Shown: in pieces, positions 6,919 through 31,594 of the stretch | How the letters are laid out: each line of letters opens with the position of its first letter | How positions within the stretch are numbered: position 1 is the first letter of the stretch | The notes under the pieces: generated by a model | What the model was told of the DNA's origin: nothing | What the model saw: the letters and a program-made list of their open reading frames with translations, nothing else | Database searches by the model: none | Made by a program: the position numbers and the translations under genes | DNA from: a virus | Lineage: Duplodnaviria > Caudoviricetes | Length of the DNA stretch: 33,592 bases | Virus record (IMG/VR): IMGVR_UViG_3300032143_000008 | Location: 1 to 33,592 of that record | Direction: 5' to 3' (one strand)

Positions 6919-7002
6919 ACTAACTCCTTTCAAAATTGTATTGATAATCATATTGATCTTTTAAGAATTCCTTATACAGAATTTCAAAATATTAATAAAT
7001 TA

Positions 7003-7797
7003 TTAACTGAGAATATCTGTACTTGTTGAAATTTGCATTCCTCTTGGAATCATTTCATTTATAAAATCTTTACCAAATTGTTCAAATCCTGTAACATCCG
7101 AAGTACAATCTTGAAGTAAACACATTTTTTTAATATTTTCTTCTCCAAAATTATTTGCAATATCTCGTATCGTATTCGCAACACAGTGACTACGAGCTTC
7201 GCCAGCTAAAATTACAATATCTGATAACGCAAGCAAATCAAGAAGCTGAGTATTCAATTGTGTCGAAGGATCACTTGGGTCTTCAACTTCACTTCGTACA
7301 GCCGAATAATGCTCAGTCAATATATTTGATCCCTTCGTAACATAATTGATCGGGCGAAATTTTTTCATTTCCCATTGACAAATCACATCCGAAAATGCAG
7401 GAACAAGTGCATGACCCCACGATCCAATGATGCAATGATACGGCCAAATTGTTAATTGATACCTTTTATTAGCTTCAAGTGCTTCAACATATGCCAAGGC
7501 TTTCTTATTAAAGCCCGCATATGTAGGAGTCCATTTACCATTTCGTACATCACTTGCCGAAATAATAGTGAAAGGATTTGGATTCTTGCCTTGACTGTCT
7601 ACCCAAAAACAAGGATGGGCAACATCAATCATACGGTGGGAATCAATCGTAACATTGATTCCCGACAACTTATTACCAATACGATTCATCATGGCAACTA
7701 GTCGTTGCATATCTTCCGTTGCTCCTGCAACAAACAAGTTACCTCTTTGATCACAAAAATCATTCTGTGGATCGATGACTAACAACTGAACGTTCAT
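7003..7797 (-). CDS. pncA: nicotinamidase / isochorismatase-family cysteine hydrolase
   Basis: IDPQNDFC, DSH, WPYHC, TKG, GEARSHCV (Asp-Lys-Cys triad and metal ligands); GGAGG RBS. Confidence 0.8.
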   Translation of the reverse strand: MNVQLLVIDPQNDFCDQRGNLFVAGATEDMQRLVAMMNRIGNKLSGINVTIDSHRMIDVAHPCFWVDSQGKNPNPFTIISASDVRNGKWTPTYAGFNKKALAYVEALEANKRYQLTIWPYHCIIGSWGHALVPAFSDVICQWEMKKFRPINYVTKGSNILTEHYSAVRSEVEDPSDPSTQLNTQLLDLLALSDIVILAGEARSHCVANTIRDIANNFGEENIKKMCLLQDCTSDVTGFEQFGKDFINEMIPRGMQISTSTDILS

Positions 7798-8025
7798 ACA
7801 ACCTCCTTCAAGTTTATATTAGTTTTTGGAACAAAATGTTTCTTTGGTATTTTATTTTTAAACATATGTTTAATTTGCACTTTTACATTTGGAAACCATA
7901 ACATTTTAAACATAGATAATTCTTTAATAAAAAGAAATATCTTGCCCCATTTGTTCTACACCACAAACATCACAAGTAAAAGAACTAGTCGAACTGTTAG
8001 ACACAAATCCTTTTCTAATTTTCAT
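7794..8025 (-). pseudogene. frameshifted or internally deleted member of the MKIRxGFVSNSS family
   Basis: ATG 8025 with AGGAGG RBS: MKIRKGFVSNSSTSSFTCDVCG...FY, stop at 7924; another frame continues to a TGA overlapping the pncA ATG. Confidence 0.6.
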
Positions 8026-8035
8026 ATTAACCTCC

Positions 8036-8857
8036 TTAATGATGTGATATAGTTAAACGATTTAATTTTCTAAATATACCTCCATGTTCTAGGGAAGCTT
8101 CCCCGGAATTATCACTATAAGAAAAAATACCTATCCACGATCCTTCAGTATTATTCTTCATAAATTTTTCATAAACTTTATTATGAATCTTGTTTTCTAA
8201 TTTTTTATGTTTACTTTCAATAGTAGCTTCAATTTTATTTTGTTTTAATTTCCATTTTGCAAATGTTTCTATTTCATTAATAGCTTTTTGTTTAATCTTA
8301 AAATTATTTTTAATAATAAAACTACTTAACTCTCGAAGTTCACTTCTACTATTAGCTACATGAAGTATAGCATATTTCCTATTACTTAAAATATCTTTAA
8401 TAATTTTAACATCTTCTAAATTTTCTAATCTCCGTAAAATATTATAAATTATTCTTATTACATCTGGTCCTATATAATAATTTAATTTTTGAATCTCTTG
8501 ATTAATTAATATTTTATTTTCTTGATCCCAATTCTCTAGTTTAAGTAATTCAACAATTAAACTATTCCTACTTCCTAAATAAGAATCAAATTGACTAATC
8601 CAAGAATAACCAATTTCTTTTTTTATTATTTTAATAGATGCTGATCTATTTTGTTTTTTAATATCTTTAAATATTCTAACAACAGCATCTTTAACAGACA
8701 TCTTATCAAGATATTCATCATTGCTAATAGAATCATCTAAATCTTTATTAGGAAATAATAAATCTTTAACTTGTTTCTCATTCTTTGGTTTAAATGGGAA
8801 TATAACAATAAAAGAACTAGAACTACTATTACTTACAAAACCATTCCTAATTTTCAT
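8036..8857 (-). CDS. MKIRNGFVSNSSSSSF-leader protein
   Basis: N-terminal 16-mer shared with three neighbours; C-terminal YSDNSG..LEHGGIF....ISHH. Confidence 0.8.
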   Translation of the reverse strand: MKIRNGFVSNSSSSSFIVIFPFKPKNEKQVKDLLFPNKDLDDSISNDEYLDKMSVKDAVVRIFKDIKKQNRSASIKIIKKEIGYSWISQFDSYLGSRNSLIVELLKLENWDQENKILINQEIQKLNYYIGPDVIRIIYNILRRLENLEDVKIIKDILSNRKYAILHVANSRSELRELSSFIIKNNFKIKQKAINEIETFAKWKLKQNKIEATIESKHKKLENKIHNKVYEKFMKNNTEGSWIGIFSYSDNSGEASLEHGGIFRKLNRLTISHH

Positions 8858-9178
8858 TTAATTTTCTCCATAATGCTTTTTATAAAATTTATTCATTATA
8901 TTTTCATCAAATCCTTTTTCAAGACTATAATTACTATCAAACTTAGCCAAATTTCTAATTCCTAAAGTAGTTAAATATTCTTTCATATCAAAGTTATCCA
9001 TACTAGTTTCACCAACTAAATATCCATCGATAATATCTATAGTCCAAGGATCAGTACAATTTGGATCTTCAATTGCATGATTAACTATTTTAATAAATTG
9101 TTCCTCCGTTATATCTGATAATAAAATTATAAAAGAACTAGAACTACTATTGCTCACGTATCCTTTTCTAATTTTCAT
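8858..9178 (-). CDS. MKIRKGYVSNSSSSSF-leader protein
   Basis: Likely true start at ATG 9178 (ATGA overlap with the upstream stop); shared leader. Confidence 0.8.
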   Translation of the reverse strand: MKIRKGYVSNSSSSSFIILLSDITEEQFIKIVNHAIEDPNCTDPWTIDIIDGYLVGETSMDNFDMKEYLTTLGIRNLAKFDSNYSLEKGFDENIMNKFYKKHYGEN

Positions 9179-9516
9179 AACCATTCCTTTTGTAGCCAAA
9201 CATTATCCCCAATCTTATCGTATTGTTCTTCATCATAAGGATATCCATGACCACCTTCATGATATGTATATACATAGGTATGCTTCTCTGATAAATCATA
9301 CAATTCTGAATATTCATCTCTCCCATCGCTAACAAACTCTGTCAGGTAAACATGATCACATAATCCAAAAGATTGTTTAGTTTCTTTCCACAATCTCATT
9401 TTCTGTTCTTCATCTAGTTCTACATATTCAACTCCATCTGGAATTAATTCTTTTGAATTGAAAATTATAAAAGAACTAGAACTACTATTACTCACATAAC
9501 CATTTCGAATTTTCAT
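9175..9516 (-). CDS. MKIRNGYVSNSSSSSF-leader protein
   Basis: AAGGAG RBS; shared leader; acidic body. Confidence 0.8.
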   Translation of the reverse strand: MKIRNGYVSNSSSSSFIIFNSKELIPDGVEYVELDEEQKMRLWKETKQSFGLCDHVYLTEFVSDGRDEYSELYDLSEKHTYVYTYHEGGHGYPYDEEQYDKIGDNVWLQKEWL

Positions 9517-11540: not shown

Positions 11541-11645
11541 TATAAATACTTATAAGATTATGAAGGACAGCGATTGATCCTCGTTTCTTTGCCAATTCAA
11601 AGATTACTTCAAAATCTCTTACTTTAACCTAATTGGAGGTATCTT
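11541..11645 (+). ncRNA. TATAAATA late-type promoter plus three-way-junction leader RNA, copy A
   Basis: TATAAATA 11541-48; P1 11555-65/11607-17; GACAG 11566-70; hairpin 11571-83; TT; hairpin TCTTTG-CCAATT-CAAAGA; TTA; loop CCAATT is complementary to AATTGG 11631-36 overlapping the GGAGGT RBS. Confidence 0.75.
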
Positions 11646-12602
11646 ATGCCTAAAAGATTAACCACAGAAGAATTTATTCAAAAAGCTAAACAAGTACACA
11701 GTGATAAATATGATTACTCTAAAGTCCATTATATTAATAGTAACAATAAAATTATTATAATATGTCCTGAACATGGAGAATTTTTACAAAACCCAAACGA
11801 TCATTTAAATAAACATGGATGTTCTAAATGTATGGCAAATAATAATAATTTAAAATTTAAAAAATCTATACATATTTTTTTACATAAAGCAACAAACATA
11901 CACAATAATAAATATAATTATTCTAAAGTAGAATATATCAATACTCATACTAAAGTTTGTATCATATGTCCTGAACATGGAGAATTTTTACAAACACCAC
12001 ATTCTCATTTGAATAATCATGGTTGTCCAAAATGTTCTCATAAAAAGGTTGGCACATTACATATTTTAGATTCAAATATTTTTATAAAAAATTGTATAAA
12101 ATCTCATAATAATTTTTATGATTATTCTAAAACCAATTATATTAATATGAGAAATGATATAATTGTTATTTGTACTAAACATGGAGAATTTAAAATAAAT
12201 GCACACTCTCACAAAAATGGTCAAGGTTGCCCAAAATGTATACCTAAAAAATCAAAAGGCGAACTTCAAATAGAAACATGGTTAAATAAAAACAATATAT
12301 ATTTTATACCACAAAAAACATTTTCAAATTGTAAAAATAAAAGAATATTACCATTTGATTTTTATTTGCCAAATTATAATATTTGTATAGAATATGATGG
12401 ACTTCAACATTTTATTCCAATTAAATATTTTGGAGGAGAACAAGAATTTCAAAGAACACAATTACACGATCATATTAAAAATCAATATTGTCAAAATAAT
12501 AATATTAAATTGATTAGAATAATATATAATCAAAATATTAATTTTATACTTTTAAATTATTTTAAATCGTGTTCTAACATACCCATTAAAAATTTCATAT
12601 AA
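11646..12602 (+). CDS. free-standing homing-type endonuclease: 3 DUF723-like Zn repeats plus PD-(D/E)xK (Vsr/DUF559-like) domain
   Basis: Three YDYSK..Y.N...KV.IICPEHGEF.Q....H....GCPKC repeats; SKGE..I..WL, PFDFYLP, CIEYDGLQHF, KNQYC..NNIKLIRI. Confidence 0.8.
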   Translation: MPKRLTTEEFIQKAKQVHSDKYDYSKVHYINSNNKIIIICPEHGEFLQNPNDHLNKHGCSKCMANNNNLKFKKSIHIFLHKATNIHNNKYNYSKVEYINTHTKVCIICPEHGEFLQTPHSHLNNHGCPKCSHKKVGTLHILDSNIFIKNCIKSHNNFYDYSKTNYINMRNDIIVICTKHGEFKINAHSHKNGQGCPKCIPKKSKGELQIETWLNKNNIYFIPQKTFSNCKNKRILPFDFYLPNYNICIEYDGLQHFIPIKYFGGEQEFQRTQLHDHIKNQYCQNNNIKLIRIIYNQNINFILLNYFKSCSNIPIKNFI

Positions 12603-13738
12603 TTTAAATCTTCACACATACTTTTTGATAAATTATCAGAAATTTTAGCAACAGGTTTTCCGTTTACCTCTACAATCTTAATCACATTCTGTAAAGCAGG
12701 AACTCCTAGATCATTGGTCAAATTAGTCCCGATTCCATAACTTAATTTAATTCTTCCTTTAAAATATTCATTTAACTTAATAGCCATAGGAACGTCTAGT
12801 CCATCACTAAACACTAATGTTTTAGTCATAGGATCAATATCAAAGTTTTTATAATGCTCAATCATTCTATCGCCCCAAACAACAGGATCACCACTATCAT
12901 GTCTCACACCATCATACAATCGTGCAAAACCTATATTAAAATCCTTTAAAAACTTATTAAATCCTAACGTATCAGTCAAAGCAATACAAAGTCTGCCTTG
13001 ATATTCATCATACCATTTTTGTAATAGAAACTTTTGACTATCAATAGGATGAACTATTGCTTGACAAATTTGAAATATCTCATGTGCCATTGTACCAACC
13101 GCAGGAATATCATACTTCATAGCATAATAAAGATTACTAGTCCCTTTGATACATCTATCTTCTATTTTCTTACCGACTAGTTTTTCAATAACAAATTCAT
13201 GCCAAGCATCATTAAATGCTCTTCTAGTTCCAAAATCTACAATATTTAAAATTCCTTGATAGTTTTTAATCATTTCTTTCTTTTCATATAGTCTTATGAT
13301 TCCATCATTCCAAATATCATTTAACTCCATTATATTCGAATAGGTTATATTAGTATAAACTTCATGCACAATTTTAAGAACATAAATTTCAAACATTAAT
13401 GTTTGAAGCAATGGTCCTTGAATTGTGATATCCATCTTACCATCTTTTTGCGAAACAGTAATATATTTCCTTTTAAGCTGATAGTCTTCTAGGAAATCTA
13501 TAAAGTCAGGTTTAAAAAAAGGATAGTTTGATAAGTAATTTAATTCATCTTTAGTAAATTTTAAACTACAAAGATGATCAAGTTCCTTATTAATCATAGG
13601 AATACAAGGAATAAGATCAACATCTTTATTACGACATTTGAAACGATATGTCGCAGTAGCATCCGAAAAATGATGAAGGACTAGTTGTAACATAGATAGC
13701 TTATAAAGATCATTCTTCATTAAAGTATCAACTATCAT
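12557..13738 (-). CDS. pncB: nicotinate phosphoribosyltransferase
   Basis: NDLYKLSM, DFGTRR, GTSN, GTMAHE, LTDT, GVRHDSGDP, VFSDGLD, GIGTNLTND, VAKISD. Confidence 0.95.
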   Translation of the reverse strand: MIVDTLMKNDLYKLSMLQLVLHHFSDATATYRFKCRNKDVDLIPCIPMINKELDHLCSLKFTKDELNYLSNYPFFKPDFIDFLEDYQLKRKYITVSQKDGKMDITIQGPLLQTLMFEIYVLKIVHEVYTNITYSNIMELNDIWNDGIIRLYEKKEMIKNYQGILNIVDFGTRRAFNDAWHEFVIEKLVGKKIEDRCIKGTSNLYYAMKYDIPAVGTMAHEIFQICQAIVHPIDSQKFLLQKWYDEYQGRLCIALTDTLGFNKFLKDFNIGFARLYDGVRHDSGDPVVWGDRMIEHYKNFDIDPMTKTLVFSDGLDVPMAIKLNEYFKGRIKLSYGIGTNLTNDLGVPALQNVIKIVEVNGKPVAKISDNLSKSMCEDLNYMKFLMGMLEHDLK

Positions 13739-13739
13739 T

Positions 13740-14135
13740 TCAACCTACCTTTATATATTTTGTAGTTTTAAAATATTGTCCATAGGTATTACTATCATCA
13801 AAATGAAAATTTATTTTATTTCGTTCACAATACTCTGCTTTAGCTTTATTCCAAACATCATCTGCAAAAAAAGGATTCTTAGAATCTTTCCAAATAACTG
13901 CTTCCCCTTTTTCTAAAAGATAATCAGTAACAGAAAAATGATGTGTATAATAAATATTAATAATATTTAAAAATTTTTCAATTTCTAAATTCCAACTAGA
14001 CCCCGTTATGATGTGAATTTGATTATCGTTTCCTCTAAAATATGAAGAATTCCCTATTATAGAATATGTTAAAAAAGAAAAAACTTCTGGATAACGATCC
14101 ACGACACCATGAATATCAATACCAATTTTTATCAC
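13740..14135 (-). CDS. HAD-superfamily protein (5'-nucleotidase-like)
   Basis: IGIDIHGVVD motif I-like, KAEYC, HFDDS motif IV. Confidence 0.65.
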   Translation of the reverse strand: MIKIGIDIHGVVDRYPEVFSFLTYSIIGNSSYFRGNDNQIHIITGSSWNLEIEKFLNIINIYYTHHFSVTDYLLEKGEAVIWKDSKNPFFADDVWNKAKAEYCERNKINFHFDDSNTYGQYFKTTKYIKVG

Positions 14136-14169
14136 ACTATATCCTTTATTAATTTCTAAATAATATATA

Positions 14170-14751
14170 TTATGGAATATAAGTTGTCAAGTTATTATTT
14201 AAAAATATTCTAAGAATTAAACTAGTTTTAATATCCATTTTAGAAATTCCTCTATTCACATTGTTCAACAAATCAACTACTCCTCCTTTTCCAAGTATAT
14301 GTATTTCAATATCTTCGGAAGATTCGTGTTGATTTTTAGAAACTTCTCCTTCGACTAGTCCACATACAATTGCAGTTTGTTCTGTACTAATTCCTGCTGA
14401 ATTATATCCAAAAGGAATAATTGAAGTAATGTATTTAAGCGTTAAACCTGTTTCCTCATTAAATTCTCTTTTAGCAGTTTGATCTTTGGTTTCATTATCA
14501 TCCATAAGTCCTGCGGGTAATTCCCAAATATAATCATTCAAAGGAATCCTGAATTGTTTAATTAAAACTATTTTATCCATTTCAGGACCATAATGATCTT
14601 GTATAACTCCTGCTATAGCTATTGCATTAACTTGTTTAGGTCTTTCCATAAATGTCCAGAATTTAGTTTCTCCCTTATTGTCAACATATTCACTAGCCTT
14701 CATCTCCAGAAATTTAGTCTTCAATAATGTTTCTGTCTGAATAACTTTCAC
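14170..14751 (-). CDS. NUDIX hydrolase, ADP-ribose pyrophosphatase-like
   Basis: KQFRIP...WELPAGLMDDNETKDQTAKREFNEETG Nudix box; NSAG; EDIE. Confidence 0.85.
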   Translation of the reverse strand: MKVIQTETLLKTKFLEMKASEYVDNKGETKFWTFMERPKQVNAIAIAGVIQDHYGPEMDKIVLIKQFRIPLNDYIWELPAGLMDDNETKDQTAKREFNEETGLTLKYITSIIPFGYNSAGISTEQTAIVCGLVEGEVSKNQHESSEDIEIHILGKGGVVDLLNNVNRGISKMDIKTSLILRIFLNNNLTTYIP

Positions 14752-14798
14752 AATTTACTCCTCTTCAACTTGATTTAATTCATTGCTATATGTTTTGC

Positions 14799-14944
14799 TC
14801 ATTTATATAAACCTTTTGTTTGAATATATTTCCATACTCTTTCATTTAAAAATATCTGAGCAGTATTAACTTTATCTTCTTTAATCCAATTTCTAATTTC
14901 ATATGAATAGGATCAAACGATCCTCCATAAATTCCTATTCTCAT
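14799..14944 (-). pseudogene. nadD: internally deleted nicotinate-nucleotide adenylyltransferase remnant
   Basis: ATG 14944 gives MRIGIYGGSFDPIH (NadD N-terminus, HxGH truncated) joined out of frame to EIRNWIKEDK...LNERVWKYIQTKGLYK-stop (NadD C-terminal pattern). Confidence 0.8.
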
Positions 14945-15168
14945 TTTTTTCCACAATCTATTAATTCTTTTTTCATTTTCTCAAAAAATACTTTATCAAG
15001 CTCTATTATTTTTCGTTGATGTTTTATAATTTCTTCATCCTTATCCATTATTTCTTTAGCAATTTCCATTTCTCTATTAAGAATTTCAATTTGCTTTGTT
15101 TGATTCTCTATCAATTCCATCAAAGTTTGATATTCATTAACAGGCATTGTAATAGTTTCTTGTTCCAT
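14941..15168 (-). CDS. small coiled-coil hypothetical protein
   Basis: ORF track, AAAGGAG RBS, ATGA overlap with the nadD remnant. Confidence 0.65.
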   Translation of the reverse strand: MEQETITMPVNEYQTLMELIENQTKQIEILNREMEIAKEIMDKDEEIIKHQRKIIELDKVFFEKMKKELIDCGKK

Positions 15169-15186
15169 ATTATCTCCTTTTCAATA

Positions 15187-15215
15187 AATATAATTTATGG
15201 TCATATAAAAGTCAA
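15187..15215 (-). promoter_or_regulatory. sigma70-type promoter TTGACT-N17-TATATT
   Basis: Nearly identical to the promoter at 3067-3095. Confidence 0.75.
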
Positions 15216-15223
15216 GTAAAAAC

Positions 15224-15326
15224 TATAAATACTTACATAGAGAGACAGCGATCTTCGAAGTCGTTTCTTTTGCCTAACCAAAAGATTATCTCTATTTAAC
15301 TTCAATCCTGTTAGGAGGTAACTTAA
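15224..15326 (+). ncRNA. TATAAATA promoter plus three-way-junction leader RNA, copy B
   Basis: P1 ATAGAGA 15237-43/TCTCTAT 15289-95; GACAG; CGA..TCG hairpin; TT; TCTTTTG-CCTAAC-CAAAAGA; TTA; loop CCTAAC is complementary to GTTAGG 15310-15 overlapping the AGGAGG RBS. Confidence 0.75.
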
Positions 15327-16073
15327 ATGTCTAAAAAACTTACTACCGAAGAATTTATTCAAAATGCTAAACAAATACATAATGATAAATATAATTATTC
15401 AAAAGTTAATTATAATGGTAATAAAACAAAAGTATGTATAATATGTCCTGAACATGGAGAATTTTATCAATCTCCTAATAATCACCTTAAACCACATGGT
15501 TGTTCAAAATGTTTTAAACATAATAAAAAACAAAAACAATTAGAAATAAAAACCAAAACTTGTATTAAATGTAATATCGAAAAAGATATAAATTTATTTC
15601 GTAAATACCGAAATATCTGCCAAGAATGTAATCTATTATATCATCAAACATATAATCAAGATCATAAAGAAAAAATATTAAAAATACAAAAAAATTATTA
15701 TTGGAATAAATATAAAACCGATCCACTTTATAAAATATCAAAGACCCTTAAAAGGCGAATATTATTAGCCGTGAAACAACAAAAAACTTCCAAAGCTTTT
15801 AAGTCAATAGAATTATTAGGATGTTCTATACCAGAATTATTAAATCATTTACAACAAACGGCAATTAAAAATGGTTATATTAATTTTGATATTAATAATT
15901 ATTCTAGTATAGAATATCATATCGATCACATATTACCATGTGCCCATTTTAATTTAAAAAGTCCAGAAGAACAAAAGAAATGTTTCAACTGGACTAATTT
16001 ACAAATCTTATCTGCTCAAGAAAATATAATAAAAAATGATAACATTAATTGGAAAAAAGATTTGATCTATTAA
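15327..16073 (+). CDS. homing-type endonuclease: one DUF723-like repeat, CxxC pairs, C-terminal HNH domain
   Basis: Same N-terminal repeat as the other four; CIKC..CQEC; YHIDHILPC...CFNWTNLQILSAQEN. Confidence 0.8.
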   Translation: MSKKLTTEEFIQNAKQIHNDKYNYSKVNYNGNKTKVCIICPEHGEFYQSPNNHLKPHGCSKCFKHNKKQKQLEIKTKTCIKCNIEKDINLFRKYRNICQECNLLYHQTYNQDHKEKILKIQKNYYWNKYKTDPLYKISKTLKRRILLAVKQQKTSKAFKSIELLGCSIPELLNHLQQTAIKNGYINFDINNYSSIEYHIDHILPCAHFNLKSPEEQKKCFNWTNLQILSAQENIIKNDNINWKKDLIY

Positions 16074-16965
16074 TATTATGCGGCCAATCTCTTTTAAAAT
16101 GTGTTCGTTCATAACGCAGGACAACAGGATGATTTTTATATTGTTCTCTAATTTTAATAAAATCTTCATAATTTTCGACTCGTCCCGCATATCTAAGATA
16201 ATCATCATATGTAAATTTATCACTATCATCAGTCAACCAAGTCTTTAATATCATATCAACTTCACTATAATTTTTTGCTTGAAGTTGTGCCACATCCGAT
16301 ACTGTAATCCCAAGTCCATCTGTTGCCACCCCGTTAATGCAAAGGTTTAAAGCTTCTGCTTTGTTATCATATGCTTTTCCATTTATGTATTGACTTGCCA
16401 TATAAATCGAAAGACTATAAACTTCAGTTTTCCATAAATTCTGTATCATTGCAAAATCTCCAATATCACCAGCCAAGGTCCAAAAACCTAGAAACCGTTC
16501 ACTGAGATTATCTGTCGAAAGAACCATGCCTTTATACTTCTGAGCAAGGTTATAAAGATAAACCATTCTAGTCCTTGCTTTAACATTTCCCAATCGAATC
16601 TTATCTTCAAGAGTTAGAGTACTATTAATCGTTTCATTTTCACCAATAGCAAGCTGTGCAATCATACCTCGATACATATTTCCAAGATCGACTTCTTGAA
16701 AATCATCACAGAAAGCACGACCGACTTTTTGTGCTCTTTCAATTTCTTCGGGCTTATTGGTTTCAATAGTCAAACTTCTTCCAATAAGTTTAATCCCAAG
16801 ATTTTTACAAACAGGATAAACCAAGGCTGCACAAAGAGCCGAATCAATTCCACCACTAACTCCAAGGACTAGCGATTTAATATTGCTATTCCTTATATAA
16901 CAAGTCAACTCATTTTGAATGTTTTGGATAACAGTATCCCAATTTTTTGTCTCATACGCATTCAT
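16045..16965 (-). CDS. nadE: NH3-dependent NAD+ synthetase
   Basis: LGVSGGIDSAL, GNVKARTRM, STDNLSE, GFWTLAGD, LWKTEVY; no glutaminase domain; ATG 16965 follows AGGAGG. Confidence 0.92.
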   Translation of the reverse strand: MNAYETKNWDTVIQNIQNELTCYIRNSNIKSLVLGVSGGIDSALCAALVYPVCKNLGIKLIGRSLTIETNKPEEIERAQKVGRAFCDDFQEVDLGNMYRGMIAQLAIGENETINSTLTLEDKIRLGNVKARTRMVYLYNLAQKYKGMVLSTDNLSERFLGFWTLAGDIGDFAMIQNLWKTEVYSLSIYMASQYINGKAYDNKAEALNLCINGVATDGLGITVSDVAQLQAKNYSEVDMILKTWLTDDSDKFTYDDYLRYAGRVENYEDFIKIREQYKNHPVVLRYERTHFKRDWPHNINRSNLFSN

Positions 16966-17158
16966 TTTCAACCTCCTGTAATATGTTTTTATTACACCGT
17001 TTACACAAATTCAATGATTTATAATAAGGAACATATAGTCGATTGCATTTTATACAATGGACTTTTTTAAAAGAATAATTTGGTTGTGTATCAATTTGCT
17101 TCTTTGCTTTTTCTGCTTTTTCATCAAGACGTTTTAGAATTTCATCAAGCTTTGCCAT
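16952..17158 (-). CDS. small Zn-ribbon protein
   Basis: CIKC and CKRC; start at ATG 17158 after AAAGGAG. Confidence 0.65.
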   Translation of the reverse strand: MAKLDEILKRLDEKAEKAKKQIDTQPNYSFKKVHCIKCNRLYVPYYKSLNLCKRCNKNILQEVENECV

Positions 17159-23510: not shown

Positions 23511-23610
23511 TATAAATACTTATAAGATTTTGAAGGACAGCGTAGGCATACGTTTCTTGCCAGTACAAGATTACTTCAAATCTCTTACTTTAACCTTACT
23601 GGAGGTATCT
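23511..23610 (+). ncRNA. TATAAATA promoter plus three-way-junction leader RNA, copy C
   Basis: P1 23525-35/23574-83; GACAG 23536-40; CGTA-GGCA-TACG; TT; TCTTG-CCAGTA-CAAGA; TTA; loop CCAGTA is complementary to TACTGG 23597-602 overlapping the GGAGGT RBS. Confidence 0.75.
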
Positions 23611-24531
23611 ATGAAAAAATTAACTACAGAAGAATTTATTAAAAAAGCTCAACAAATACATGGTGATAAATATGATTATTCAAAAGTTAATTATCTTAAT
23701 AGTCATATTAAAGCTTGTATAATATGTTTAGAACATGGAGAATTTTGGCAACTCCCAAATTGTCATTTAAATTATAAAGGGTGTCCTATGTGTGGAAGAG
23801 AACATAAAAACGAATGGAGAAAACTAACTACTGAAAAATTCATTCAAAAAGCTAAACAAGTTCATGGTGATAAATATGATTATTCTCAAGTGCAATATAT
23901 TAATTCTGCTCAAAAGATTTGTATCAAATGTCCTGAACATGGTGAATTTTTTCAACTTTCCAATAATCATTTTAAAAACGGATGTCCTAAATGTGGTGGA
24001 AGTAAAGCTTTAAATAAAGAAGAATTTATTGAAAGAGCGATTAGAATACATGGTAAAATATATGATTATAGTAAATCAGAATATAAAAATAATAAAACTA
24101 AAATTTGCATCATATGCCCCAAACACGGAGAATTTTGGCAAAAACCTATTATTCATTTATATGAAAAATCTGGATGTACTAAATGTCGAAGATCAAAAGG
24201 TGAAGAGACAATCGAACAGTGGTTAATAAATCATAATATTCAATTTGAAACTCAAAAAAAATTTAAAGACTGTAAAAATAAATTACCATTACCATTTGAT
24301 TTTTATTTATTAAATTATAATATTTGTATTGAATATGATGGCATACAACACTTTAAATCCAAAAAATTTTATGGAGGAATTGATGCTTTATTTATACGCC
24401 AAAAAAATGATAAAATAAAAGATCAATATTGTATTGATAATAATATTGATCTTTTAAGAATTCCTTATACTGAATTTAAAAATATTAATAATATATTAAA
24501 TTCTTATTTTAATATAAAAGAGGTATTCTAA
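23611..24531 (+). CDS. DUF723-like Zn-repeat plus PD-(D/E)xK endonuclease
   Basis: Likely true start ATG 23611 (MKKLTTEEF) after GGAGGT; three repeats; PFDFYL, CIEYDGIQHF. Confidence 0.8.
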   Translation: MKKLTTEEFIKKAQQIHGDKYDYSKVNYLNSHIKACIICLEHGEFWQLPNCHLNYKGCPMCGREHKNEWRKLTTEKFIQKAKQVHGDKYDYSQVQYINSAQKICIKCPEHGEFFQLSNNHFKNGCPKCGGSKALNKEEFIERAIRIHGKIYDYSKSEYKNNKTKICIICPKHGEFWQKPIIHLYEKSGCTKCRRSKGEETIEQWLINHNIQFETQKKFKDCKNKLPLPFDFYLLNYNICIEYDGIQHFKSKKFYGGIDALFIRQKNDKIKDQYCIDNNIDLLRIPYTEFKNINNILNSYFNIKEVF

Positions 24532-25356: not shown

Positions 25357-25423
25357 ACTTATTCCTTATTTAAATGTCATGATAAAATCTTTAATATTTA
25401 TATTAGTATTTATACTAAATTAA

Positions 25424-25514
25424 TATAAATACTAATATAAGGTTAGGTTTAATACTAGTAATATTAAACCAATCCACAGGAGTTCTTGTGGACTGTCCCT
25501 TAACTTTATTTATA
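25424..25514 (-). ncRNA. three-way-junction RNA copy D, inverted, between convergent TATAAATA motifs
   Basis: Minus strand: TATAAATA (25514-07), TAAGG GACAG TCCACA-AGAACTCC-TGTGGA TT GGTTTAATA-TTACTAG-TATTAAACC TAA CCTTA; AGAACTCCT is antisense to the gene's AGGAGTTCT RBS (25514-22); plus-strand TATAAATA at 25424-31. Confidence 0.7.
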
Positions 25515-25525
25515 GGAGTTCTAAT

Positions 25526-26434
25526 ATGCCTAAAAAATTAACTACGGAAGAATTTATTCAAAGAGCTAAACAAGTACACGGTGATAAATATGATTATTCT
25601 AAATCAATATATATTGACAGTTATACTAAACTAAAAATAATTTGTTCTAAACATGGTATATTTGAACAAAAACCATACATTCATTTACAAGGTTATAATT
25701 GTTATCATTGTGGTCTTATAGATCGTGATAATAAACATAGAAAAAATATTGAAACTTTTATTATCGAATCTCATAAAATTCATAATAATAAATATGATTA
25801 TTCTATGGTACAATACAAAAATAACATAACAAAAATAAAAATAATTTGTTCTAAACATGGAGTATTTGAACAAACTCCTAATTCTCATATTAGTCAAAAA
25901 TGTGGTTGTCCAAAATGTGCCAACGTATCAATTCCATCAACTCAATATTTTATTGAAAAATCTATAGAAATTCACGGAAATAAATATGATTATTCTAAAA
26001 GTAATTATATTAATAGCAGAACTAAAATATGTATAATCTGTAAAAAACATGGAAAGTTCTGTCAAATTGCAAGTACACATTTAAGAGGATGTGGATGTCC
26101 CAAATGTCAAAGATCAAAAGGAGAAGAACAAATTGCAAACTGGTTAAAAGAACATAACATAAACTATAAATGTCAATTTAAATTTAAAAACTGTAAAAAT
26201 AAAAATTTATTATCATTTGATTTCTTTTTACCAGAAATGAATATTTGTATTGAATTTGATGGTAAACAACATTTTCAACCGATTTCAGAATTTGGTGGAT
26301 TAATTAAATTTAATAAACAAAAAATAAATGATAATATTAAAAATCAATATTGTTATATCCATAATATAAAATTAATTAGAATTCCTTATTACGATTATAA
26401 CAATATTGATATTATATTATCACTTCATACCTAA
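25526..26434 (+). CDS. DUF723-like Zn-repeat plus PD-(D/E)xK endonuclease
   Basis: Three repeats; SKGEEQI, FDFFLP, CIEFDGKQHF. Confidence 0.8.
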   Translation: MPKKLTTEEFIQRAKQVHGDKYDYSKSIYIDSYTKLKIICSKHGIFEQKPYIHLQGYNCYHCGLIDRDNKHRKNIETFIIESHKIHNNKYDYSMVQYKNNITKIKIICSKHGVFEQTPNSHISQKCGCPKCANVSIPSTQYFIEKSIEIHGNKYDYSKSNYINSRTKICIICKKHGKFCQIASTHLRGCGCPKCQRSKGEEQIANWLKEHNINYKCQFKFKNCKNKNLLSFDFFLPEMNICIEFDGKQHFQPISEFGGLIKFNKQKINDNIKNQYCYIHNIKLIRIPYYDYNNIDIILSLHT

Positions 26435-27874
26435 GATAAAATTTTTAATTTTATCAATATCATTTACATTTATATTTTTATCAAGAATCCAATCCATAGT
26501 TTTTTTAATAATTTCTCCTATTTTTTTTCCTTCTGTTTTAGGATTGATTTTTAACAAATCAATAATAAATTTACCATTAATAATCTTTCGAATATTTTCT
26601 ACTGAATTACTACCACTATATTTACTTTTAAGTTTTTCAATCTTTTGAATAATTTTATTCCATTCTTCTTCGTCAAAAAGTTGACCCCTGGCTCTGCTAT
26701 CAGCTTCGGCTACACTTAATAATAAATCAAAATATGGACTATTCATCATTTTCAAAGCAGTAGAATCTTTTAACTTTAAAAATTGAGGCATTTTCATATG
26801 ATTAGCAGCAGCAAATTGTAAAGCTTCTCTAGTATCATTATCTAATTTAAGACGATTAGCTATTTCATCAATCATTTCAAATGCTTTAGCCTCGTGTCCA
26901 TAATAATGATGTTTATTATCATCTCCAACAGAATGTGTTTTTAACTTCCCAATATCATGCAAAAGAACCGCTAATGTAACTAATGGGTCTTTAATTTTAA
27001 CTGTCTTAATAGCCTCAATCACATGACCAAGTACAGTTCCTTTTAATTTACCTTCACCCTCGGGATGGTCTTCGAGACTATGTAATTTATCTGCTAATCC
27101 AACAATTTCAGGAAGAATATATTGCATCAATCCGGTATTAATTAACAATTGAATAGATTTTGCAAAGGTTTCTCCTTCAGCATCAGCCATTTTAAAAAGT
27201 TCTTGAGAAATTCTTTCAGCAGCAACTTTCTTTATTTCTGGCGCATGTTGTTTAATTGCTTCCATAGTCTTATCGTCTATACGAAAACCTAACTTGGAAG
27301 AAAATCTCACTCCACGCATTAATCTTACAGGATCTTCAATGATTCTAGTCTTAGGATCTCCAACAAAAGAAATAATTTTATTTTTAATATCACTTAATCC
27401 ATTTACATGATCTATAACATTTCCATCTTTGTCAATGCCAAGTGCATTTAATTTGTAGTCACGCCTTTCTGCATCGTCTTTAAATGAACTAGTTATTTCA
27501 ACTTTATCTGCTCCTTTACCTCCACCTAATTTATCATAAATATCTTTTCTATAAGTTGCAATTTCTATATTTTGACCTTTATAGGGTACTACAGTCACGC
27601 CCATCAATTTATTTTTACCTATATCTATGGAGGTTCCAAATATTTTTTCTATCTGTTCTGTATTAGCATTTGAAACTAAATCTATATCATGAGGATCTTT
27701 GCCCAACAATAAATCTCTAGTTGCTCCTCCGACTATCAAACATTCAAATCCGTGCGAATGAATTTTAGTCATTACTTCAACTGCATTTTTTAAATCTGAA
27801 TACTTATCTTTAAGGTCTTCCCATTGATCAAATTTTTCTTCTGTTAAATAGGTATAATATTCTTTAAATTTCAT
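26420..27874 (-). CDS. cca: CCA-adding tRNA nucleotidyltransferase with HD domain
   Basis: VGGATRDLLLG..PHDIDL, EIATYR, DAERRD..LNAL, EDPVRLMRGVRF, ERI..EL, HPEG, LLHDIGK, GHE. Confidence 0.88.
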   Translation of the reverse strand: MKFKEYYTYLTEEKFDQWEDLKDKYSDLKNAVEVMTKIHSHGFECLIVGGATRDLLLGKDPHDIDLVSNANTEQIEKIFGTSIDIGKNKLMGVTVVPYKGQNIEIATYRKDIYDKLGGGKGADKVEITSSFKDDAERRDYKLNALGIDKDGNVIDHVNGLSDIKNKIISFVGDPKTRIIEDPVRLMRGVRFSSKLGFRIDDKTMEAIKQHAPEIKKVAAERISQELFKMADAEGETFAKSIQLLINTGLMQYILPEIVGLADKLHSLEDHPEGEGKLKGTVLGHVIEAIKTVKIKDPLVTLAVLLHDIGKLKTHSVGDDNKHHYYGHEAKAFEMIDEIANRLKLDNDTREALQFAAANHMKMPQFLKLKDSTALKMMNSPYFDLLLSVAEADSRARGQLFDEEEWNKIIQKIEKLKSKYSGSNSVENIRKIINGKFIIDLLKINPKTEGKKIGEIIKKTMDWILDKNINVNDIDKIKNFILGMK

Positions 27875-27899
27875 TTGGTATCCTTTATAAATTTATCCT

Positions 27900-27928
27900 A
27901 AAATAATATATTTTAATTAAAAAGTCAA
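27900..27928 (-). promoter_or_regulatory. sigma70-type promoter TTGACT-N17-TATTTT upstream of cca
   Basis: Same -35 as the other minus-strand promoters, 17-nt spacer. Confidence 0.55.
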
Positions 27929-27940
27929 CCTATTTTTTAA

Positions 27941-28849
27941 TTATATTTCTCCTAGTCTATTAAATTCTCTATAAGCAAGTTCTAAATCATCTCCAAAAAC
28001 TCTTTTATAATCATTTTTACTTGGATAATTTTGATTATCTTTAATAAATTTTCTAAGATAATTATGAATTGTATTTTTGATTCCGTTCATTCCAAAAAAG
28101 CCCTTTCCAACTGCTTCATTACTTTCTAAATTTTTCATTATATCATCTCTCAATTTTTTCATATAATCACCATCTATATTTAAATGTAACCGTAATTCAT
28201 ATCCAATATCATCATCATCTAAAAAAGCTAAAGCAGCATCATTTAATTTTTTAATAAATTTATCTCCTCTAAGCGGCTCTAATGATTGTTTATATAACTT
28301 TGCAATTTTTTCTAATCTATTTACAATATTTTGTCCTTTAGTTGCAAGTTCTCCTTTTTTAACAGATATATCTGCACCCCTTTTAATAAAATTTTGTATA
28401 GTGTCTTGATAATCTCCACCCATAGCATTTACCATTAATTTTTTTCCACCATATGCTATAAATTTTTTATATGCTTCTAATTTTTGTTTTGTATATTCCT
28501 GATTTTCTGGATAAAAATACTCATTACCCCATGAACAAACAGATATATAATCATCTTTAGGGACTAGTTTTTTCTTATAATAATATTCCTGTAATACATC
28601 ATAACCTGTTCGATGTTCATCTGCTATAGCAATTGGAATAATATTATTGGTTTTTAATCCAATTAAGATATATCTTACTTGATCCCATTGTCCAATTTTC
28701 TGTCCTTTAGTAGCACTGTTAGCTGCTAAGATTTTAGCTTTCCAATTTTTAGCATTAGACATATCTCCAGTTATTTCAAAATTCTTTTGAATTTTTTCTG
28801 GAATAATAAATTGTTCTTTAGCTTCTTTATAATATTGTGAAAATTTCAT
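27941..28849 (-). CDS. hypothetical protein with N-terminal tag MKFSQYYKE
   Basis: ORF track. Confidence 0.75.
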   Translation of the reverse strand: MKFSQYYKEAKEQFIIPEKIQKNFEITGDMSNAKNWKAKILAANSATKGQKIGQWDQVRYILIGLKTNNIIPIAIADEHRTGYDVLQEYYYKKKLVPKDDYISVCSWGNEYFYPENQEYTKQKLEAYKKFIAYGGKKLMVNAMGGDYQDTIQNFIKRGADISVKKGELATKGQNIVNRLEKIAKLYKQSLEPLRGDKFIKKLNDAALAFLDDDDIGYELRLHLNIDGDYMKKLRDDIMKNLESNEAVGKGFFGMNGIKNTIHNYLRKFIKDNQNYPSKNDYKRVFGDDLELAYREFNRLGEI

Positions 28850-29875
28850 TTAATAATCTCCATAACCATATTCGATATATCTAGCCGCAGTTTTTGGTTT
28901 CATCTTTTTAAAATCATCCATACTATAAACTTCATCTGCTGGTTTTATAGCAACATAAATATTTTTAATAAAGACAGGTTTAATATTTCCTTTATAACCA
29001 TAGATACCAAATTCTTTAGATAAGCTCATAGGTTTACTTTTATATGTTCTTTTATGACTTTGAACATGATAATCATAAAATTCATGTGCTCCAGTTTCTC
29101 CTTCGACATCATAATCGGCAATCATTAAATCTTTATCTGGTATTTTAAATTCTAATATAATAGGAATTCCACCCTTCTTATTAGCAGTCATTATAGAATG
29201 CCCCATTGCTTCACCTATTAAAGTTGTAAAGAAAATTTTATCTGGATGTTGTATCCCTTGTTTTAGCCAATTAGATTCTCTCTCGTCAGGTCTAAGTCCT
29301 TTTCTTAAAATTCCATCTAAATATTTTGAAGTTGTTCCATGATAAGCAATATCTGATATTTCTCCAACTATTTTCTTTTTAGTAACTTTAATATCACTGT
29401 CTCCATGAGAAACAGTAACAGACTTTAATTTTAAAGTATCTACAACTTTCTTGACAAGAATAGAAGATTTAGGGTCTAATTTAAAAGATGAATAATTTTG
29501 AACATATAAGACTTTATCATGTATGCTTCCGACTAAAACATCTGGATATCTTTCACTAATTTCTTGCATAAGCGAATATACATCTGATGAATCATTATAT
29601 TCTTCAAAATTTAAATTAGTTGCTATTTCATCTTTAATATTTTGAATATTTGGATCATCATCGTTTAAAAAATAAATCCATTTATCAAATGCTATAATCA
29701 CATCATTGTTTTTATCTCCAACAACAACCATTTCATTAATAGCTTCATCATCTTCAAATTGAGTAACGGATGCATCATAAGCATTCAATCTTCTTTTAAG
29801 TTTATCTTCACTAAATTGATTAAGCGAAGAATCCATTCCATTTATTGCTTCTTTAAGATGTTCTATATAACTCAT
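28850..29875 (-). CDS. putative ADP-ribosyltransferase-fold (Tpt1/KptA-like motif) protein
   Basis: Start ATG 29875 (MSYIEHLKE, AAGGAG RBS); AYHGTT...ILRKGL.P, IFFTT, ILEF.IP. Confidence 0.6.
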   Translation of the reverse strand: MSYIEHLKEAINGMDSSLNQFSEDKLKRRLNAYDASVTQFEDDEAINEMVVVGDKNNDVIIAFDKWIYFLNDDDPNIQNIKDEIATNLNFEEYNDSSDVYSLMQEISERYPDVLVGSIHDKVLYVQNYSSFKLDPKSSILVKKVVDTLKLKSVTVSHGDSDIKVTKKKIVGEISDIAYHGTTSKYLDGILRKGLRPDERESNWLKQGIQHPDKIFFTTLIGEAMGHSIMTANKKGGIPIILEFKIPDKDLMIADYDVEGETGAHEFYDYHVQSHKRTYKSKPMSLSKEFGIYGYKGNIKPVFIKNIYVAIKPADEVYSMDDFKKMKPKTAARYIEYGYGDY

Positions 29876-30024
29876 TTGATCTCCTTTAAAATACAATCAC
29901 ATAATACATATCTTGCTATAACACTTCCAGATAAACACAATGTTGCCGTTAATACACAATTATCTTGTAATGTCCATCCTTCTGCTGCTGATGTTATAGC
30001 TCCACCTATAATAGTATATTCCAT
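29872..30024 (-). CDS. small hypothetical protein (50 aa, MEYTIIGGAITS...)
   Basis: Manual ORF with TAATG and ATGA overlaps with both neighbours. Confidence 0.5.
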   Translation of the reverse strand: MEYTIIGGAITSAAEGWTLQDNCVLTATLCLSGSVIARYVLCDCILKEIK

Positions 30025-30569
30025 TATTCACCTATCTTAATAACATCAAGATAAGGTTCTAGTTTTAATAAAAACATTTTATTTTGATCTTCAAATTTTA
30101 TAAAATTATATTTATCTTTCTCTGACATATCTTCATCAAATTCTTTCCATTCGTCTTCATCTGTTTTATATTTAACAACAGCCTTAATAGGAACGTCAAA
30201 TATCTTAATAACTTTAAGATTTAAATCTTCAAAATCAATTGCTTTACCACTATCATTTGTAGCTTTGACTAAAGTACCTTCTTCTAAATTATCTAATGCT
30301 TCATTGCTTTCAACACCAATATAAAAATCATATGTATATAATGATACAGGTTTTTTAGTTGGAGTTAATTTATTATCTGTATCTAAACCTCCACCTTTTT
30401 TAAATTGAGGGGGTCGATATTTTTCTTGTTCAGGTGCGGGCAACGACCTAATAAGAACACGATTTCTTTGACCTGTCGGAGTTACGTGGTACACATATCT
30501 ATCTCGCCACGATTTTTTTGGTTTTAAATTCAATTTATATTCGTTTAAATAAAATTCTAAAAAATTCAT
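30024..30569 (-). CDS. hypothetical protein with N-terminal tag MNFLEFYLNE
   Basis: ATG 30569 with GGAG RBS. Confidence 0.7.
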   Translation of the reverse strand: MNFLEFYLNEYKLNLKPKKSWRDRYVYHVTPTGQRNRVLIRSLPAPEQEKYRPPQFKKGGGLDTDNKLTPTKKPVSLYTYDFYIGVESNEALDNLEEGTLVKATNDSGKAIDFEDLNLKVIKIFDVPIKAVVKYKTDEDEWKEFDEDMSEKDKYNFIKFEDQNKMFLLKLEPYLDVIKIGE

Positions 30570-30585
30570 TTTTGTCTCCAATTTT

Positions 30586-30677
30586 TATAAATACTTAAAA
30601 GAGGTTAGGTTTAACATTAGTAGTGCTAAACCAATCGACAGGATACTAATCGACTGTCCCTCACAATAGTATTTATA
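30586..30677 (-). ncRNA. three-way-junction RNA copy E, inverted, between convergent TATAAATA motifs
   Basis: Minus strand: TATAAATA (30677-70), GAGG GACAG TCGA-TTAGTATCCTG-TCGA TT GGTTTAGCA-CTACTAA-TGTTAAACC TAA CCTC; GTATCCT is antisense to the AGGATAC RBS (30688-94); plus-strand TATAAATA at 30586-93. Confidence 0.7.
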
Positions 30678-30697
30678 ATTTTTAATAAGGATACCAC

Positions 30698-31594
30698 ATG
30701 TATAAAAAACTTACCCAACAAGAATTTATTCAAAAAGCCAAATTAGTTCATGGTGATAAATATAATTATTCAAAAATACTTTATATTAATGCAAGAACTA
30801 AAATTGAAATCATATGCAAATTACACGAATCGTTTTTTCAAACTCCAAATAATCATTTACAAGATCATGGTTGTCCTAAATGTTCTGGTAATTTAATATC
30901 TAATACTTATGAATTTATTCAAAAAGCAAATTTAATTCACGATAATTTTTACAATTATTCCAAAACAAATTATATAAACAGTCAAACAAAAGTTTGTATA
31001 TTATGTCATGAACATGGCAATTTTTACCAAACTCCAAATGCTCATTTAAATGGAAAAGGATGTGCTAAATGTTATTCAAAAACATTAAATGATTTTATTC
31101 AAAAAGCAAATTTAATTCACAATAATTTTTACAATTATTCAAAATCAGAATATAAAAATTCAAAAACTATACTATGTATTATATGTCCCAATCATGGTGA
31201 ATTCTGGCAACAACCTAATAATCATTTAATAGGCAAAGGATGTTCAAAATGTCAAAGATCAAAAGGCGAAGAAACTATTGAAAAATGGTTAAAAGAAAAT
31301 AATATTCAATATGAAACCCAAAAACGATTTAAAGATTGTAAAAATATAAAACCTCTTCCATTTGATTTCTTTTTACCAAATCATAATATTTGTATTGAAT
31401 TTGATGGGGAACAACATTTTAAACCATCATATTTTGGCGGCAAAGAATCTGGTATTGAAAAATATAATAGAACAAAAATATCCGATAATATTAAAAATAA
31501 ATACTGTCAAATCTATAATATCTCTCTAATCAGAATACCATATTATAATCTTAATAAAATTAAAACTACATTAAAAAAATATCTTAATTTATAA
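30698..31594 (+). CDS. DUF723-like Zn-repeat plus PD-(D/E)xK endonuclease
   Basis: Three repeats; SKGEETI, PFDFFLP, CIEFDGEQHF. Confidence 0.8.
   Translation: MYKKLTQQEFIQKAKLVHGDKYNYSKILYINARTKIEIICKLHESFFQTPNNHLQDHGCPKCSGNLISNTYEFIQKANLIHDNFYNYSKTNYINSQTKVCILCHEHGNFYQTPNAHLNGKGCAKCYSKTLNDFIQKANLIHNNFYNYSKSEYKNSKTILCIICPNHGEFWQQPNNHLIGKGCSKCQRSKGEETIEKWLKENNIQYETQKRFKDCKNIKPLPFDFFLPNHNICIEFDGEQHFKPSYFGGKESGIEKYNRTKISDNIKNKYCQIYNISLIRIPYYNLNKIKTTLKKYLNL

Follow-up and report, generated by a model that had tools for sequence, protein, structure and literature searches.

Many selfish nucleases are tolerated by phages. Their known controls are single hairpins particular to one gene, whereas the RNA described here, which stands beside five nuclease genes on a linear virus record of 33,592 nt (IMG/VR record IMGVR_UViG_3300032143_000008; 33.6 kb, 27% G+C; the window), appears to be a shared module that is re-aimed for each partner. 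In type I toxin-antitoxin systems, translation of a toxic protein is blocked by a small RNA. Antisense transcripts of insertion sequences (art200, RNA-OUT) themselves span the ribosome-binding site (RBS) and are specific to their element; RNA-OUT of IS10 is reportedly a small RNA encoded opposite the 5' untranslated region (5' UTR) of the mobile-element enzyme, whose translation it represses. In RNA-guided nucleases of the TnpB/IscB kind the RNA is tied to one protein family and its variable part matches a distant DNA target.

Among T-even hairpins that sequester an RBS are those of I-TevI, I-TevII, I-TevIII, segB and Aeh1 mobE; in the accessible text of the source the RBS lies in a plain stem, and a late promoter is placed such that late transcripts are made without the structure (PMC2988022). 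The C4 antisense RNA of phages P1 and P7 is described, in the available sections of two papers, as an RNA of about 77 nt with three stems, whose exposed loop pairs with mRNA and partly covers the RBS; a variable loop sets specificity, the RNA has two loops, a' and b', and RNase P cuts it from a precursor (PMC5320573, PMC8198154). IS200 encodes art200, a small RNA opposite the 5' UTR of the mobile-element enzyme that represses translation, with pairing limited to 40 of 90 complementary nt, according to the accessible part of its description (PMC4513863). Cyanophage S-PM2 has an antisense RNA, CfrI, at a T4-like phage homing-endonuclease gene; it is about 225 nt long, lies antisense to both the endonuclease gene and psbA and, in the available portion of the paper, is of unknown function (PMC2984593).

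Most of the substantial genes of the window are on the minus strand. Five related nuclease open reading frames (ORFs), A to E, run on the plus strand (starts 11646, 15327, 23611, 25526 and 30698), each with one copy of the RNA beside it, in sense orientation at A–C and inverted at D and E. The RNA is a three-way junction, described by P1-GACAG-P2-UU-P3-U(U/A)A-P1', where P1, P2 and P3 are stems. We consider it probable that D and E are antisense small RNAs of 60–70 nt that repress translation of the neighbouring nuclease through pairing of the P2 loop with its RBS, and that the sense form would do the same in cis. The observed basis of this translation-brake reading is the fold, the match of each loop to its cognate gene, the tie of that match to the ATG, the two promoter-like boxes and the spread of partners; from these we infer that the RNA is transcribed, where its ends lie, and that it pairs with the mRNA in vivo, represses it and brings a benefit. 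The boxes resemble late-promoter consensuses, given as TATAAATA for T4 and NATAAATA for S-PM2 in the accessible text of PMC2984593. The features of the two inverted loci are as follows.

25424..25431, plus strand: facing box of D, TATAAATA, T4-type late-promoter-like, predicted promoter of the nuclease mRNA
25438..25502, minus strand: 65-nt three-way-junction RNA of D, recognized by descriptor, fold score and covariation in relatives
Parts of D, minus strand: P1 25502-25498 with 25442-25438; GACAG 25497-25493; P2 25492-25473; UU; P3 25470-25446; UAA 25445-25443
25478..25486, minus strand: recognition seed in the P2 loop of D, 9 nt complementary to the nuclease D RBS region
25507..25514, minus strand: minus box of D, TATAAATA, predicted small-RNA promoter, ending 4 nt before P1
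25514..25522, plus strand: target site of D, the nuclease D RBS region (ATG at 25526)
25526..26434, plus strand: nuclease D, 302 amino acids, with three zinc-ribbon-like repeats and a C-terminal nuclease-like domain, antiparallel to its neighbours
30586..30593, plus strand: facing box of E, TATAAATA, predicted promoter of the nuclease mRNA
30601..30662, minus strand: three-way-junction RNA of E, recognized by descriptor, fold score and covariation
Parts of E, minus strand: P1 30662-30659 with 30604-30601; GACAG 30658-30654; P2 30653-30635; UU; P3 30632-30608; UAA 30607-30605
30640..30646, minus strand: recognition seed in the P2 loop of E, 7 nt complementary to the nuclease E RBS region
30670..30677, minus strand: minus box of E, TATAAATA, predicted small-RNA promoter
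30688..30694, plus strand: target site of E, RBS region (ATG at 30698)
30698..31594, plus strand: nuclease E, 298 amino acids, of the family of D (56% identical in alignment A1)

The descriptor finds exactly five copies in the window, one beside each related nuclease ORF; when the window was dinucleotide-shuffled, 298 of 300 shuffles held no copy and two held one. The fold of D has a z-score of -2.79, with none of 200 shuffles as good, and that of E a z-score of -2.41, with two of 200 as good; for E, the minimum-energy fold contains an alternative pairing and the centroid structure is the three-way junction. The 9-mer of D, AGGAGTTCT, occurs at two places on the plus strand of the window (25478-25486 and the RBS at 25514-25522) and nowhere on the minus strand, and AGGATAC of E occurs at both 30640-30646 and 30688-30694. 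The element, boxes, loops and RBS copies that a first-pass annotation of the sequence had reported at D and E are all where it had placed them, and the shuffles rule out chance. That annotation had also pointed to TACTA in the second loop of both copies. The motif is indeed in the P3 loops of D and E, yet it is not a conserved loop, being present in only 4 of 39 inverted copies, and we therefore take it as a mark of kinship between D and E.

Relatives were collected with four pattern scans of viral contigs, one scan of genome contigs and one protein-based locus search, which gave 79 distinct cores: 23 sense-type, 44 inverted with a divergent ORF and 12 others. Removal of identical loops leaves 39 of the 44 as the inverted set, whose membership was decided from the arrangement of genes, irrespective of any loop match. 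Model searches and a metagenome scan bring the family to 103 copies; the descriptor passed 1 of 8 pattern matches in genome contigs and 9 of 116 in the metagenome. The family is widespread in T4-like phage contigs. One complete 254-kb genome has at least 18 copies (16 sense-type and 2 inverted) and another genome has 6 inverted copies and 1 sense copy. All three stems covary, with two-sided changes at 17 of 19 pairs in 25 inverted copies and at 11 of 16 pairs in 24 sense copies, in alignments that come from descriptor hits and are thus biased towards the structure. RNAalifold, run on the five window copies, recovered P1 alone because the inner stems vary in length. Within the core, the fifth base and the first U are variable (GACAA, GACAC, GACAT, AACAG; CU).

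Rfam gave no match in the window at E up to 1, and at E up to 5 it gave none over the copies in 20 and in 13 loci. When D and C were compared with the phage collection by BLASTN, only partial, weak, A/T-rich or box-only matches came back, and both covariance models found nothing in five named large phage records with nuclease D relatives, under stricter filters and with no positive control. No account of the RNA was found in literature searches that covered mostly open-access papers, most subscription papers lying outside their scope. The RNA is also without a match in four of the six supplements of PMC10690425, a catalogue, by its available text, of more than 10,000 candidate viral RNAs; the remaining files may hold the motif unnamed. 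We conclude that the RNA is real, widespread and uncatalogued.

Each loop in the window best matches its own gene, over 6, 6, 6, 9 and 7 nt for A to E, with at most 5 nt for the other genes. The same holds across the family. Among the 39 inverted copies, the mean match between the P2 loop and the start region of the cognate divergent gene is 7.26 nt, compared with 3.91 nt for non-cognate genes; none of 100,000 permutations reaches the observed sum, and the own gene is the best or tied best match in 31 of 39. Matches of at least 7 nt occur in 28 of the 39 cognate pairs versus 1.3% of the non-cognate pairs. The P3 loop of these copies is at background (3.23 versus 3.31). In the 23 sense copies the roles are swapped, the P3 loop matching over 6.39 versus 3.89 nt and the P2 loop being at background. 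Twelve inverted copies found by the model only, and hence held out, have a mean match of 7.33 versus 4.51 nt, with at least 6 nt in 11 of them. A relaxed parser left 4 of 19 model-found copies unparsed and gave a match of at least 6 nt in 14 of the other 15, and all eight new metagenome copies match over 6–9 nt. Loss of the RBS match in homologs was what the first-pass annotation had named as speaking against its proposal; the match is instead maintained in the 39 inverted, the 12 held-out and the 8/8 metagenome copies. Since the match is kept, we regard pairing of loop and RBS as being under selection.

The position of the match varies with a standard deviation of 2.9 nt when measured from the ATG versus 5.6 nt from the promoter box. 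Spacing between box and ATG ranges from 10 to 30 nt, and the distance from match to ATG is kept; the correlation with this spacing is 0.75 for the box distance and 0.30 for the ATG distance. At two loci (L146 and L279) the match overlaps the start codon. Since the match stays with the ATG, and here even extends over it, the target is most likely mRNA and not promoter DNA. The seed is mostly unpaired in 33 of the 39 inverted copies.

The three sense copies have the following layout.

11541..11636, plus strand: copy A, with the box at 11541-11548, the junction at about 11559-11613 and a P3 loop complementary to 11631-11636; nuclease ORF at 11646
15224..15315, plus strand: copy B, with the box at 15224-15231, the junction at about 15237-15295 and a P3 loop complementary to 15310-15315; nuclease ORF at 15327
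23511..23602, plus strand: copy C, with the box at 23511-23518, the junction at about 23529-23580 and a P3 loop complementary to 23597-23602; ATG at 23611

A covariance model built from inverted copies, D and E among them, recovers A–C, on which it was not trained, at E of about 1e-6, so both layouts have one fold. The proposal of one scaffold in two layouts is thus borne out by the descriptor and by the model, and we conclude that the module has switched between leader and antisense forms. As the window holds both forms before one nuclease family, cis and trans wiring are directly comparable in it. The P2 loops of the sense form are rich in palindromes: 20 of 23 distinct loops have one of at least 4 nt (11.4 in shuffles) and 10 of 23 one of at least 6 nt (3.2 in shuffles), counts that none of 5000 shuffles reaches in either case. 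Copy C is one of the three sense copies without such a palindrome. P3 loops of the inverted form show no excess (17 of 56, versus 20.0). Two sense-form copies (L212:1318-1379 and L316:1501-1562) have inverted-like stems and P3 matches of 9–10 nt; they are possible intermediates between the layouts. In genome G001, two sense-type copies (L317 and L322) have a box and neither a target nor an ORF behind them. The P3 loop of L322 is the same as that of the copy at L328, so that the L328 gene could be reached in trans.

A facing box is present in 31 of the 34 inverted copies that were not selected for it, compared with 7 of 761 background windows and 0 of 23 sense copies. In all 12 held-out inverted copies both boxes are found within one mismatch, though the model contains no box. 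The promoter-like motif noted on either side of D and E is accordingly a feature of inverted copies in relatives too. Together the boxes form 8-bp inverted repeats 58–84 nt apart. The TATAAATA box is also found upstream of ordinary minus-strand genes of the window (25148, 23503 and 20774), and further boxes lie past the RNA of D at 25414 and 25402. Transcription from a late promoter would start 4–6 nt past the box, and P1 begins 4–6 nt past it in 37 of 51 copies; this distance therefore points to a primary 5' end. Internal non-Watson-Crick positions of the stems on the GACAG strand are 16 G-U versus 4 A-C, with a slight selection bias, which favours this strand as the one that folds as RNA. 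A sigma-70 scan was at background level (52 versus 56.1). Gp23 of the T4 type has a match in all five RNA-carrying genomes tested. A weak match to gp45 was seen in two of these five and fell below the cut-off, and the late-transcription machinery is for this reason not established.

The genes next to the RNA encode unrelated proteins. Pfam assigned the neighbours to GIY-YIG, HNH, LAGLIDADG, DUF723/DUF4379-type, DUF7487, T5orf172 and IS605 OrfB/TnpB; 8 of 57 were without a match, and several had a zinc finger or helix-turn-helix alone. Nine of 27 RNA pairs with at least 75% identity precede proteins without BLAST similarity (L070 and L263, for example, whose RNAs are 98% alike). The RNA is also optional. 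No full-length copy is present in 32 other loci with nuclease D relatives (flanks up to 1.5 kb), and in two genomes it lies near the start of 9 of 18 and 6 of 10 related nuclease-like ORFs, one ORF being cut by the stretch boundary. With unrelated partners and optional presence, the RNA fits a self-travelling regulator and not a guide or cofactor; the Pfam types and the 9 of 27 pairs agree with the earlier suggestion of an autonomous RNA unit. Sense copies at L010 and L029 stand before ORFs beside group I intron cores, and the RNA probably also serves intron-encoded nucleases. Two inverted copies (L246:1313-1430 and L261:1215-1337) are head-to-head with TnpB (IS605 OrfB) genes. These two loci share a short palindrome after the RNA, maybe an element end, and at L261 the RBS has drifted, leaving a 5-nt match.

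In the inverted form, the minus-strand RNA would be transcribed from its own late-promoter-like box, and its exposed P2 loop would pair in trans with the RBS of the neighbouring nuclease mRNA and lower its translation. In the sense form the P3 loop would act in cis from the leader, forming a pseudoknot that covers the RBS in its 5' half. The benefit may be that damage by the selfish nuclease is limited. Several observations weigh against this translation brake. If the nuclease mRNA begins at the facing box, it includes a sequence complementary to every base of the small RNA; complete pairing of the two is predicted to gain 70 (D) and 86 (E) kcal/mol over the separate folds, and such a duplex would leave the RBS itself unpaired. 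Because the full duplex is so much more stable, the model needs kinetic trapping, processing or an excess of the RNA; the partial pairing of art200 is a precedent for an incomplete duplex at D and E, and this mirror copy within the mRNA may serve as a decoy or as another target. The near-invariant junction exceeds the needs of a plain antisense RNA. Folding energy prefers the GACAG strand in just 22 of 39 copies, and no classical terminator follows P1 (3.5 U in 6 nt, versus 2.6 on the mirror side). Ten of the 103 copies lack a 6-nt match. Loop–target changes in 57 copies, counted for preservation of wobble pairs, point neither way (2 G-U, 3 A-C and 4 transversions). The first collections, moreover, were chosen on GACAG and the box. 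The GACAG core is nevertheless no artefact of the search patterns, since a box-anchored search of three genomes with the core letters free returned a GACAG-type core in 20 of 25 matches; the loop match was at least 6 nt in 20 of these 20 and in none of the other five.

We speculate that P2 is the intermolecular loop in both forms. A wider reading, which we hold only tentatively and think rather less likely to be right than wrong, is that of a portable, re-programmable riboregulator that moves between unrelated selfish nucleases, with two wirings round one core. P2 would contact another RNA in both: in the leader form its self-complementarity would let mRNA copies pair together and so sense their dose, and in the inverted form it would be aimed at the RBS, with the mirror copy as a decoy that sets a threshold. 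If true, homing endonucleases would have a natural translation switch that responds to dose.

Other explanations fit parts of the data. The junction might be a conditional switch that binds a protein, an ion or a metabolite, or the RNA copies might pair together, so that nuclease translation follows RNA dose or infection stage. We think this unlikely, though it would account for a core that is kept across diverged copies and regained when its letters are left free, for the palindrome excess in sense-form P2 loops and for the decoy copy of the RBS that an inverted-form mRNA would hold. No ligand or partner was identified, the fifth base and the first U of the core vary, and the inverted P3 loops have no palindrome excess. 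The GA opposite U-(U/A)-A may moreover be only a folding module of the UAA/GAN kind. A less probable explanation makes the fold part of a host-strand transcript, either the leader of the minus-strand gene that follows or RNA read through from the operon, which it stabilizes or punctuates, with RBS contact as a by-product. The RNA does share its strand with the operon: where a gene beyond the nuclease is visible, it has this orientation in 14 of 15 loci, and the gene after the RNA has it in 18 of 22; E lies 35 nt before a minus-strand ORF, and a clear terminator is absent. However, the loop matches the start region of the divergent nuclease and not the downstream gene, no ORF lies within 400 nt after the RNA in 17 of 39 loci, and a box is re-supplied past the RNA in 10 of 39 loci, D among them. 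A long transcript bearing the loop would also repress, which merges this explanation with the translation brake.

Conserved unpaired junction bases and a helix that always falls at the start region would suit an RNA that cuts or marks the mRNA, the junction and loop–target helix acting as a small ribozyme or recruiting an RNase. This is very unlikely: no Rfam ribozyme matches over any copy, and the target helix is formed from P2 in one form and from P3 in the other, which a catalytic geometry would hardly permit. We give slightly less credence still to a device at the DNA level, in which the segment between the boxes is invertible, a possibility that the first-pass annotation had listed for checking, or the RNA loop invades its own promoter DNA. 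The 8-bp inverted repeats, an outer stem that runs through the boxes in a few copies and a weak correlation of the two spacings (rho 0.32, p 0.02) are in its favour, but the signature of a flipped copy, a P2 loop matching the downstream RBS over at least 7 nt, is seen in 1 of 50 copies, where it is an A/T-only run. No second box accompanies any of the 23 sense copies, and the match follows the ATG rather than the box. Least probable of all is a guide or a protein-binding antitoxin, an RNA that binds the nuclease and directs or blocks it. The RNA is tightly linked to nuclease genes, two TnpB genes included, and a guide role had been raised in the first-pass annotation. It does not fit partners with unrelated folds, of at least five unrelated nuclease types, and near-identical RNAs before dissimilar proteins; nor does it fit the absence of a full-length copy from all 32 other nuclease D-relative loci and its presence near 9 of 18 and 6 of 10 related ORFs. 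The variable loop is accounted for by the RBS, matching as it does the start region of the mRNA.

Four of the five window nucleases are about 300 amino acids long, are 51–56% identical to D and have three zinc-ribbon-like repeats and a conserved C-terminal domain; nuclease B has only the zinc-ribbon-like repeats in common with the other four. Nuclease D matches phrog_559 (E 1.6e-76) and phrog_9084, 'homing endonuclease' (E 1.7e-32), in PHROGs, which groups the window nucleases with homing endonucleases; their activity is predicted from annotation, and D is a putative free-standing homing endonuclease. A profile of the nuclease gave no match among solved structures. A 77-nt stretch at 6930-7006, at the junction of two minus-strand genes, shares 92% identity with the last part of the nuclease C gene at its 3' end (24423-24499) and looks like a remnant of a lost nuclease. 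Genes for NAD salvage, nicotinate phosphoribosyltransferase and NAD synthetase, lie beside nucleases A and B (12557-16971), and D and E are flanked by tRNA nucleotidyltransferase, 2H phosphoesterase and kinase genes. Three adjacent minus-strand ORFs at 8036-9516 have the N-terminal motif MKIRxGxVSNSSSSSF in common, with a fourth DNA copy of it at 7977-8042. Between 18225 and 33567 many minus-strand ORFs start with a short MKF.E.Y-like or MSYI.YL.E-like N-terminal tag; the two tags suggest a common sorting signal.

What is added here is the occurrence of the two forms side by side in a single genome, in front of one nuclease family, together with the held-out tests, the evidence against a guide and against inversion, and the difference between the forms in loop palindromes. 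With its swappable loop of 6–10 nt, the 65-nt scaffold would make a compact natural component for programming translation.

Compared with the systems introduced above, the layout of D and E fits that of a type I toxin-antitoxin pair, judged by gene arrangement. In contrast to a phase-variable switch, inverted orientation between the repeats was not found in the copies compared. Unlike RNAs of the TnpB/IscB kind, this RNA is neither tied to one protein family nor always present with it; the RBS accounts for its 6–10 nt seed, which is too short for a distant-target search, and within the window the 9-mer of D is confined to the D locus. CfrI is the sole antisense RNA at a homing-endonuclease gene that we found described in the literature searched, and the accessible text of its report describes no common fold or RBS-matched loop (PMC2984593). 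The family resembles C4 in its three-stem fold and in an exposed loop complementary to the RBS, where pairing is predicted from complementarity. It differs in having one matching loop, the second being at background against the start region, its own box, nuclease genes as targets and a sense leader form, and the window has no RF01695 match at E up to 10. With the T-even hairpins it has in common a predicted control of homing endonucleases at the level of the RBS, a late-promoter box and an association with group I introns (L010, L029). Unlike in those hairpins, the boxes of A–E lie 5' of the whole fold, the RBS would be met by a loop, the core is common across genomes and a trans form is predicted. 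Like art200 and RNA-OUT, the inverted RNA would be encoded opposite the 5' UTR of its target, if the mRNA starts at the facing box. Here, however, the box of the RNA lies between the RNA and the RBS, the RBS is reached by a duplicated seed of 6–10 nt, and one scaffold serves unrelated enzymes.

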